From the NCBI RefSeq assembly GCF_003334765.1, contig NZ_QOWT01000068.1: 4,312 bases of DNA. One strand, 5' to 3'. The notes beneath the pieces are model-generated. The model was not told the origin of the DNA. It did no database searches and was given only the letters and a program-made list of their open reading frames with translations. Position 1 is the first letter of the stretch. Every line of letters starts with the position of its first letter. Shown here piece after piece: positions 2,233 to 3,439 of the stretch. The position numbers and the translations under genes are program-made. This DNA comes from Escherichia coli. Lineage in GTDB: Bacteria > Pseudomonadota > Gammaproteobacteria > Enterobacterales > Enterobacteriaceae.

Positions 2233-3183
2233 TTATTTGCGTAGTCTGACCTCTTCTACCGCATGATTAGCACTTTTCGTCAGGATTAAACTGGCGCGCT
2301 CACGAGTAGGTAGAATATTTTGCTTTAAGTTCAGCCAGTTGATCTCTTTCCACAATGTCATGGCAGTCTTAATCGCTTCTTCTTTAGTTAATTTCGCGTA
2401 GTTATGAAAATAGGAATCCGGGTCGGTAAAAGCCCCTTCGCGGAATTTCAGAAAACGGTTGATATACCATGTCTGAAGTAAGTCTTCCGGTGCATCAACA
2501 TATATCGAAAAATCGACAAAATCAGAAACAAATACATGATGTGGATCGTGTGGATAATCCATCCCGCTCTGTAAGACATTTAACCCTTCAAGAATTAAAA
2601 TATCAGGCTGAACAACCGTTTTATCTCCATCCGGGATCACATCATAAATAAGATGTGAGTAAACAGGTGCTGTAACGTTTGGCACGCCGGATTTGAGATC
2701 GGAAACAAACTTCACCAGGCGATGCATATCATACGATTCCGGGAAGCCTTTCTTCTTCATCAGACCACGTTCTTTCAGAACCTGATTAGGGTGAAGGAAG
2801 CCATCTGTAGTGATCAGTTCAACACGACGATGTTCCGGCCAACGGCTTAATAGCGCCTGCAATACACGGGCGGTTGTACTTTTCCCCACCGCGACACTGC
2901 CAGCAATACTGATAATGTAAGGAATGCGTTGCCCGTTGGTACCAAGAAACTGTTCCAGAACTGCCTGACGGCGCAGATTCGAGCTTATATAGAAGTTCAG
3001 CAAACGTGACAAAGGTAAATAGATCTCGGCAACTTCTTCTAACGAGAGATCTTCATTAATACCTTTGAGACGGGCGATCTCATCTTCCGATAACGTCATA
3101 GGTACGGAATCACGCAGAGCTGCCCACTGGTTGCGGTCAAACTGTAGGTAAGGCGTCATTAACGTTTGCTCTTTTATACTCAT
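2233..3183 (-). CDS. coaA: Pantothenate kinase, type I (CoaA), first step of coenzyme A biosynthesis
   Basis: The track ORF 2233..3339 (-) contains the sequence I recognise as E. coli CoaA, beginning [20 protein letters not shown]..., with Walker A P-loop [10 protein letters not shown] place the start at the ATG at 3181-3183 (316 aa) rather than the track's TTG at 3339. The 52-codon upstream extension has no plausible ribosome-binding site and runs into the divergent tRNA promoter region. Confidence 0.9.
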
Positions 3184-3439
3184 AAGCATGTTTCTGGCGG
3201 TCATAGCTCTATCGGCAAAGCGATATTTGCCATGGCGCGTCACAGTTCTGTTGAATGGGTTAATGGGCAGGAGGGTAACACCAGATGGGGAGGAATAATA
3301 AGAAAAAATCTCTGCCAGGAAGCTATCGTTGAAAAGCAATGTGACAGATATTCCATCTGATAAAAAGAATTATGGTTTAGCAGGAGCGCATTGTTGAGCA
3401 CAATGATGTTGAAAAAGTGTGCTAATCTGCCCTCCGTTC

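Follow-up and report, generated by a model that had tools for sequence, protein, structure and literature searches.

The coaA locus and its candidate starts

The 4312-base stretch of Escherichia coli K-12 DNA analysed here (the window) opens with the end of rrnB and then carries murB, birA, coaA on the minus strand, the tRNA genes thrU-tyrU-glyT-thrT and the start of tufB; our subject is where translation of coaA begins. CoaA is the type I pantothenate kinase: its translation is 100% identical to PDB entries 1ESM/1ESN across 316 residues and contains the P-loop GxxxxGK[ST] as GSVAVGKST, PF00485 is precomputed for all close homologues, and the RefSeq product name is concordant. It is quite probable that both Met1 and the downstream Met9 are used as starts, on an mRNA without a Shine-Dalgarno sequence made from one weak promoter, and that two further in-frame ATGs, at codons -2 and -7, are not detectably used.

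A window position x corresponds to x + 4171843 in NC_000913.3 (MG1655), as checked on the coaA start (4175026 = 3183) and the thrU 3′ end (4175463 = 3620). Conservation was read in 81 species, i.e., 80 Enterobacteriaceae species and Salmonella, with each coaA upstream region read in frame. The features of the coaA reading frame are the following.

2233..3183, minus strand: coaA coding sequence, long form, 316 aa, 36.36 kDa, stop included (open reading frame list; RefSeq K-12 DHB4 and MG1655; PDB; Pfam)
3181..3183, minus strand: Met1 ATG, main annotated (RefSeq) start (N-terminal peptide 2-17; ATG in 77/81 species; top predicted accessibility)
3157..3159, minus strand: Met9 ATG, the second start in frame, from which the short form of 308 aa and 35.43 kDa is made (peptide, INRI-seq peak, 1SQ5, 67/81 species)
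3187..3189, minus strand: ATG at codon -2, which would give 318 aa, without evidence of use in E. coli (sequence)
3202..3204, minus strand: ATG at codon -7, which would give 323 aa, probably silent (sequence)
3370..3372, minus strand: first in-frame stop (TAA) 5′ of Met1
3265..3369, minus strand: portion of the open frame lying 5′ of the coaA mRNA, including TTG 3339-3337

The four in-frame ATGs (beginning at 3204, 3189, 3183 and 3159) and two rare codons, ATA at codon 3 (3177-3175, minus strand) and CTA at codon 13 (3147-3145, minus strand), all lie where the original prediction, made from the letters of this DNA, had placed them. The open frame upstream of Met1, which had been given as 52 codons, comprises 62 sense codons and ends at TAA 3372-3370, 52 being the count up to TTG 3339-3337, the canonical start farthest away. 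In mononucleotide shuffles of the intergenic region, a frame open for at least 62 codons has a chance probability of P ~0.03, and for two additional in-frame ATGs among the 8 codons preceding the start it is P ~0.005. The start-site ambiguity raised by the same prediction is real in databases, where E. coli CoaA models of 316, 308, 318 and 323 aa all exist, the -2 ATG is annotated as start in many public records, and gene callers have assigned to near-identical genes models of 288, 305-313, 316, 317, 318, 320, 325, 335, 352, 368, 424 and 430 residues. That the ATGs in use cannot be told apart holds for the sequence taken alone, but published experiments already show which of them are used.

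Start codons in use

In a 2026 study by deformylation-assisted N-terminomics (TRAINSPOTTER), a method that enriches formylated nascent N-termini and cleaves only after Arg (ArgC-type), coaA appears with two start sites (Table S2, row 65): the Met1 N-terminus was detected as peptide 2-17 and the Met9 N-terminus as MTPYLQFDR (9-17), with Met retained before Thr, and no upstream coaA start is listed in that table (PMC13245402). Cell-free retapamulin profiling (INRI-seq, Table S3) recorded the in-frame coaA ATG at +24, i.e., Met9, with 7.8 counts per million (CPM) in 2 replicates, and no alternative coaA peak at -6 or -21, though such offsets were called elsewhere (PMC9825163). The same in vitro data include two out-of-frame internal coaA peaks, at ATG +127 (3056-3054, a 5-codon open reading frame) and at ATC +133 (3048-3056, minus strand; PMC9825163).

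Both forms of CoaA are represented in the PDB, the long one by the 316-residue chains 1ESM and 1ESN and the short one by 1SQ5, whose chain comprises exactly residues 9-316. As distant homologues align from residue 6-10 onward only, the eight extra residues of the long form do not belong to the conserved core. Translation from Met1 is predicted to give a mass of 36.36 kDa and translation from Met9 one of 35.43 kDa, and the CoaA products described by Song and Jackowski in 1992 reportedly measured 36.4 and 35.4 kDa, matching these values. UniProt P0A6I3 presumably lists two isoforms by alternative initiation, and in literature text searches no paper restating the 1992 two-product result was found.

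The original prediction had expected more than one CoaA polypeptide to arise by alternative in-frame initiation, and N-termini seen for both Met1 and Met9 agree with this. Of the checks it had proposed, N-terminal proteomics is available as published data, with N-termini at Met1 and Met9 only, and so is retapamulin profiling, with a cell-free peak for Met9 but for neither -2 nor -7; the MSIKEQ N-terminus is not alone, being accompanied by the Met9 peptide and peak. The upstream ATG cluster, in contrast, is not the origin of the alternative products: the pair consists of Met1 and the downstream Met9, and for the -2 and -7 codons neither an N-terminus nor a ribosome peak has been reported.

Transcription start and promoter

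By SMRT-Cappable-seq, in which full-length 5′-triphosphate transcripts are read, a single coaA-only transcript was mapped to 4174045-4175107 on the reverse strand of NC_000913.3 (PMC6131387), and a Term-seq 3′ end at 4174046 is concordant with the 3′ end of this transcript (Adams 2021). Since the two 3′ ends match, the other end of the transcript is the transcription start, at window position 3264, which is also the published answer to the 5′-end mapping suggested by the original prediction; the transcription-start table of Kim 2012 has no coaA entry. With the mRNA beginning at 3264 the leader is 81 nt long (3264-3184), and neither TTG 3339 nor the frame above 3264 lies on the coaA mRNA. As part of coaA the open frame is therefore mostly untranslatable, the DNA above the start being promoter. 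The features concerned are listed here.

3264, minus strand: coaA transcription start (A), from SMRT-Cappable-seq
3184..3264, minus strand: 81-nt 5′ untranslated leader of the coaA mRNA, from the SMRT-Cappable-seq start
3262..3312, minus strand: invariant block, the coaA core promoter (-48 to +3), from alignment, promoter scan and start match
3272..3280, minus strand: extended -10 element TGT-TACCCT (TAACCT in many genera), from the position-weight scan and invariant in the alignment
3296..3301, minus strand: weak -35 TTATTA inside a T-rich tract, with an 18-bp spacer, from the position-weight scan

The coaA core promoter, of a weak extended -10 type, corresponds to the 50-nt block at 3262-3312. 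This block is 90-100% identical across Enterobacteriaceae genera, far above the coaA leader, remains recognisable in Pantoea and Paramixta, and occurs, unannotated, once in each E. coli genome. The block travels with coaA: its core is separated from the coaA ATG by 82-135 nt (standard deviation 18), as compared to a distance of 228-958 nt to thrU. A position-weight scan of all 81 loci returned a single sigma-70-type promoter that reads towards coaA and keeps its position, with 4.2 bits on average and 1.75 at the minimum, versus 10.2 bits for the thrU promoter. The extended -10 element has TGn, T-12/A-11/T-7 and an observed start 8 nt after the hexamer, and is conserved in the 81 loci and in two Erwiniaceae. 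A start at 3265-3264 had been predicted from conservation before the experimental value was found, and the SMRT-Cappable-seq start at 3264 agrees with it; it is this coincidence of scan-predicted and experimental start that identifies the block as the promoter of coaA. Also invariant within the promoter are the spacer CATCTGGTGT and the C-rich discriminator CCTGCCC.

Such invariance is not exceptional, the thrU promoter being at least as conserved when anchored (39/70 vs. 30/80 positions at ≥95% identity). The thrU-tufB promoter, TTGCAT-17-TAGAAT with a GCGCGC discriminator (3502-3536, plus strand; 10.2 bits), is almost invariant in 69 species.

Other readings of the block were tried and rejected. 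It matches no Rfam family. As an intrinsic terminator or attenuator it would have a hairpin 8-12 nt away from the T tract and degenerate in E. coli, and no Term-seq 3′ end falls there; the strand comparison made for this reading gave 52 vs. 28 loci. On the plus strand, AGGAGGG (3269-3275) is followed after 9 nt by ATG 3285-3287, which opens a 15-codon open reading frame (3269-3332 in all) of the same length in Salmonella. Its frame is shifted by 1-nt indels in Enterobacter, Leclercia and Lelliottia and its ATG is absent in Pantoea, and the frame was rejected as a small gene on these grounds; the C-richness of the promoter strand probably accounts for it. Sigma-54, sigma-32 and sigma-E promoters were discarded, by inspection only, for misfits in spacing or consensus. 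A FadR operator, to which a likeness to CTGGTnnnACC had pointed, was scored with a matrix of nine MG1655 operators (fadB, fadL, fadI, fabB, fabA, fadD, fadE, iclR and fadH): the coaA block reached 3.7 bits, a score attained by 0.2% of background positions, vs. 11.8-18.6 bits for the real operators under leave-one-out.

Upstream of the promoter, an inverted repeat GTGATGC(N10-12)GCATCAC is found in many genera (loci L019-L027, L032, L038-L040, L066, L072, L075, L076 and others) between about -60 and -90 relative to the coaA start and 25-35 nt upstream of the T tract. Its inner part often extends the stem to 11-13 bp, and the repeat is degenerate in Escherichia, Salmonella and Citrobacter (E. 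coli 3313-3346); it may serve as an operator or as an insulating hairpin. A second inverted repeat, AGCACA-N15-TGTGCT, lies at 3397-3423 in the coaA-thrU spacer. In genomic SELEX (systematic evolution of ligands by exponential enrichment) this spacer is an NtrC target with 63% peak height, present in two target tables (PMC8743547), and by coordinate conversion the peak maps near window position 3470 (spacer ~3400-3520). Inside coaA, differential RNA-seq placed an antisense plus-strand transcription start at 4174249, i.e., window position 2406 (Adams 2021).

Ribosome-binding signals and leader

No Shine-Dalgarno pairing was found 3-15 nt before the coaA starts, and neither AGG nor GGA is present before Met1 or Met9. 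Pairing with the 16S rRNA 3′ tail gives duplex energies between +0.2 and +0.4 kcal/mol for the -7, -2 and Met1 codons, and Met9 reaches -2.1 kcal/mol, as compared to -4.3 for murB, -6.4 for birA and -6.3 kcal/mol for tufB. The original prediction, in which an AGGAGG-like motif was reported missing from the coaA starts, is thus supported by energies near 0 against those of the neighbours. Met9 is the sole ATG of the four with a negative duplex energy; its local A+U content is 0.70 and its local fold is the least stable (-2.7 kcal/mol). The elements of the leader and the neighbouring genes are located as follows.

3169..3173, minus strand: AAGAG, a purine run weakly resembling a Shine-Dalgarno sequence, 9 nt upstream of the Met9 ATG (duplex -2.1 kcal/mol)
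3197..3238, minus strand: predicted leader hairpin pairing the -7 AUG with an out-of-frame CAUGGC (minimum free energy and centroid structure)
214-1242, plus strand: murB
1239-2204, plus strand: birA
from 3545, plus strand: tRNA genes thrU-tyrU-glyT-thrT
4101, plus strand: start of tufB

The coaA mRNA is of the leadered type lacking a Shine-Dalgarno sequence and does not belong to the leaderless class, its start lying 81 nt upstream of Met1. Besides the -7 and -2 ATGs, the leader holds a GTG in frame at -20; it is poorly conserved and varies in length between genera. Over the 81 leaders, predicted accessibility has its maximum at Met1 and its minimum ~20 nt upstream. The predicted hairpin at 3197..3238 is neither significant against shuffles (z = -1.72 for the leader fold) nor conserved. 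No Rfam family matches the region up to E=10 except tRNA, and Term-seq records no premature 3′ end within the coaA leader; on these grounds, together with the non-significant fold and the poor conservation, a structured leader, riboswitch or attenuator was rejected.

The leader also contains an out-of-frame upstream open reading frame of 10 codons (ATG 3233-3231 to TGA 3203-3201, minus strand), whose stop overlaps the -7 ATG as AUGA; its ATG is ATT in Citrobacter, and it is thus not conserved. Further downstream, codons 5-8 of coaA (GAG CAA ACG TTA; 3160-3171, minus strand) contain GCAAACGTT, which we take to resemble the left half and centre of the PurR operator, the right half having no match.

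Regarding codon usage, the rare ATA at codon 3 and CTA at codon 13 stressed in the original prediction are indeed present, but a gene-wide enrichment is not borne out: classic rare codons make up 2.8% of coaA, 3.8% of murB and 6.2% of birA. Codon 3 is ATA in only 18/81 species, AAA being the commonest codon at that position. With a gene-wide share below both neighbours, rare codons were rejected as the cause of low coaA expression.

Conservation of the starts

Met1 is ATG in 77 of the 81 species. In the four exceptions (loci L032, L038, L039 and L040, i.e., Atlantibacter and a mislabelled record, Citrobacter freundii M-21) the codon is AAA and the -2 ATG is kept, a natural start-codon switch in which the gene must begin at the -2 ATG (MLKSNTEQTIM...) or at Met9. 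The Met9 ATG is present in 67/81 species and replaced by Thr in the other 14, 8 of which have an ATG at codon 7, so that 75/81 species retain an internal start at one of these two codons. As to the upstream codons, the -2 ATG is found in 66/81 species, with AAG in Kosakonia and Phytobacter, several species of which have in-frame stops at -3/-4, and the -7 ATG in 28/81, a stop separating it from Met1 in 8 of those; one genus (L054) keeps an upstream ATG, yet out of frame. Immediately before Met1, GCTT-ATG-AG hardly varies between species; a purine-/A-rich run precedes it.

The upstream in-frame stop lies at a median distance of 12 codons and within 27 codons in 70/81 species, which makes the long open frame of E. 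coli a lineage-specific accident; only 8/81 species, mainly Escherichia, have a frame open for at least 50 codons.

Constraint on the coding sequence itself is concentrated at its beginning, in the following feature.

3157..3177, minus strand: codons 3-9, with frozen synonymous sites, a putative initiation region common to the two starts (synonymous codon identity)

Among 311 windows of the gene, those that begin at codons 3 and 4 rank at the top, with a synonymous codon identity of 0.91; the median over the gene is 0.48 and the 99th percentile 0.86. Amino acids 2-8 of CoaA are poorly conserved despite this synonymous constraint, which is the pattern that would be expected of an RNA initiation region serving two starts. 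As a comparator for constraint at the 5′ end, birA offered 7 colinear orthologues only, all of them from Escherichia.

Proposed mechanism and alternative explanations

In the mechanism that we consider quite probable, one weak extended -10 sigma-70 promoter (TGT-TACCCT, 3280-3272) would give rise to a scarce mRNA starting at 3264 with an 81-nt leader. As this mRNA has no Shine-Dalgarno sequence, 30S subunits are proposed to select the coaA starts by local accessibility and A-richness. Ribosomes starting at Met1 (3183-3181) would produce the 316-aa, 36.4-kDa enzyme, and others, starting less or equally often at Met9 (3159-3157), the 308-aa, 35.4-kDa enzyme; initiation at Met9 may be aided by the weak AAGAG 9 nt upstream, in the most A/U-rich and least structured stretch. 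Both forms fold as pantothenate kinase, with the whole catalytic core common to both. The -2 and -7 AUGs lie on the leader and would probably be silent, the rest of the upstream frame being promoter DNA that is open by chance. The positions, the missing Shine-Dalgarno pairing, the transcription start, the two N-termini and the pattern of conservation are shown directly; we infer that start selection at coaA is independent of Shine-Dalgarno pairing, that the weak promoter and weak initiation are causes of the low CoaA abundance, and that the -2 and -7 AUGs are silent in E. coli.

Several observations weigh against this account. The in vitro signal at Met9 is weak (7.8 CPM, 2 replicates), and in vivo Ribo-RET is without any coaA signal, probably because of low expression. 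ArgC-type N-terminomics could not reveal a product starting at -7, whose peptide (f)MTAR is too short, and the Met-rich 19-mer expected from -2 may be hard to detect by the same method. The -2 ATG is as widely conserved as Met9 and must serve as a start, alone or alongside another, in Atlantibacter. Finally, the constraint on codons 3-9 could reflect the initiation region of Met1 alone.

Some of these points lead to the idea that three or four N-terminal forms exist, with -2 (318 aa) and/or -7 (323 aa) also initiating at low level and AUG-CUU-AUG acting as a set of redundant starts. Both AUGs are in frame and on the mRNA, the chance probability of two extra in-frame ATGs in 8 codons is low (P ~0.005), gene callers often pick -2 or -7, and the -2 ATG, present in 66/81 species, is the only N-proximal ATG where Met1 has been lost (Atlantibacter); judging from these sequences, the -2 AUG may be a minor or back-up third start that has taken over in that genus. 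However, neither codon has yielded an N-terminus or an INRI-seq peak. The -7 ATG, restricted to 28/81 species and followed by an in-frame stop in 8, is paired in the predicted hairpin, the upstream ATG of the L054 genus is out of frame, and the invariance of the region concerns GCTT-ATG-AG and does not extend to the AT of the -2 codon. Taken together, additional forms appear doubtful.

Equally doubtful, in our estimation, is that the long/short CoaA pair is maintained by selection and that the two forms differ in function, e.g., in stability or in feedback inhibition by coenzyme A (CoA), as might be argued from the internal start (codon 9 or 7) kept in 75/81 species and from codons 3-9 being the most constrained synonymous sites.

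That Met1 is the single start, the Met9 N-terminus being a product of degradation or an in vitro artefact and the internal ATG a plain methionine, is very improbable. The absence of a Met9 peak from in vivo Ribo-RET, the small size of the in vitro peak and the change of Met9 to Thr in 14/81 species would all accord with it, but the peptide 9-17 retains Met before Thr in a workflow enriching formylated nascent N-termini, the cell-free ribosome peak stands at the right distance for Met9, Met7 has been gained in 8 of the 14 species that lack Met9, and the two predicted masses match the two bands as they are said to have been sized.

A longer gene, starting at TTG 3339 (368 aa) or GTG 3243 (336 aa) and with the open frame as coding sequence, would explain the 62-codon frame (P ~0.03) and the metagenome gene calls that include 368-aa and longer CoaA models, yet it has hardly any credibility left, as transcription starts downstream of TTG 3339, 70/81 species have a stop in the upstream frame no more than 27 codons away, third-position wobble is missing from the best-conserved part (3262-3312), which contains 1-nt indels and corresponds to a promoter, and GTG 3243 has no Shine-Dalgarno pairing, no peak and no peptide.

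Significance and comparison with known systems

The dual start of coaA is real, ordinary and already known, and it is resolved by published experiments. The additions made here are minor: the assignment of the conserved block to the promoter, with an experimental start matching the predicted one, the per-species counts of the ATGs, the constraint on codons 3-9, and the loss of Met1 in Atlantibacter. For annotation, the experiments support 316 and 308 residues only among the records of 308, 316, 318 and 323 residues, and the mRNA start at 3264 excludes the longer upstream CoaA models. CoaA sets the rate of CoA synthesis, and the amount and form of the enzyme matter for metabolic engineering and for correct annotation. 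In the long-held view CoaA is scarce and CoA levels are mainly under feedback on the enzyme; two starts, a weak promoter and the lack of a Shine-Dalgarno sequence fit this view and leave current understanding unchanged.

The nearest known case is the long/short CoaA pair of E. coli itself, reportedly described by Song and Jackowski in 1992, which is the same gene and the same phenomenon with nothing different in kind. The infB gene (IF2 alpha/beta/gamma) resembles coaA in that one mRNA with several in-frame starts gives nested proteins with a common C-terminus; unlike the coaA forms, which differ by 8 poorly conserved residues, those of infB differ by 157-164 residues. The infB forms differ in function, and we know of no functional difference between the coaA forms. 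Closer in scale are secB (+8), infA (+8), pgk (+5) and raiA (+2/+9), which likewise combine an annotated start with a nearby downstream ATG, both N-termini having been detected (PMC13245402, Table S2). In coaA, neither start is preceded by AGG or GGA, and the same study found 192 of 806 detected E. coli start sites, i.e., about a quarter, to be without AGG/GGA and enriched in A-rich sequence (PMC13245402). Among the leadered mRNAs with A-rich start regions that initiate independently of Shine-Dalgarno pairing, coaA, with its 81-nt leader and A-rich codons 3-6, is an ordinary member from which no difference was found.

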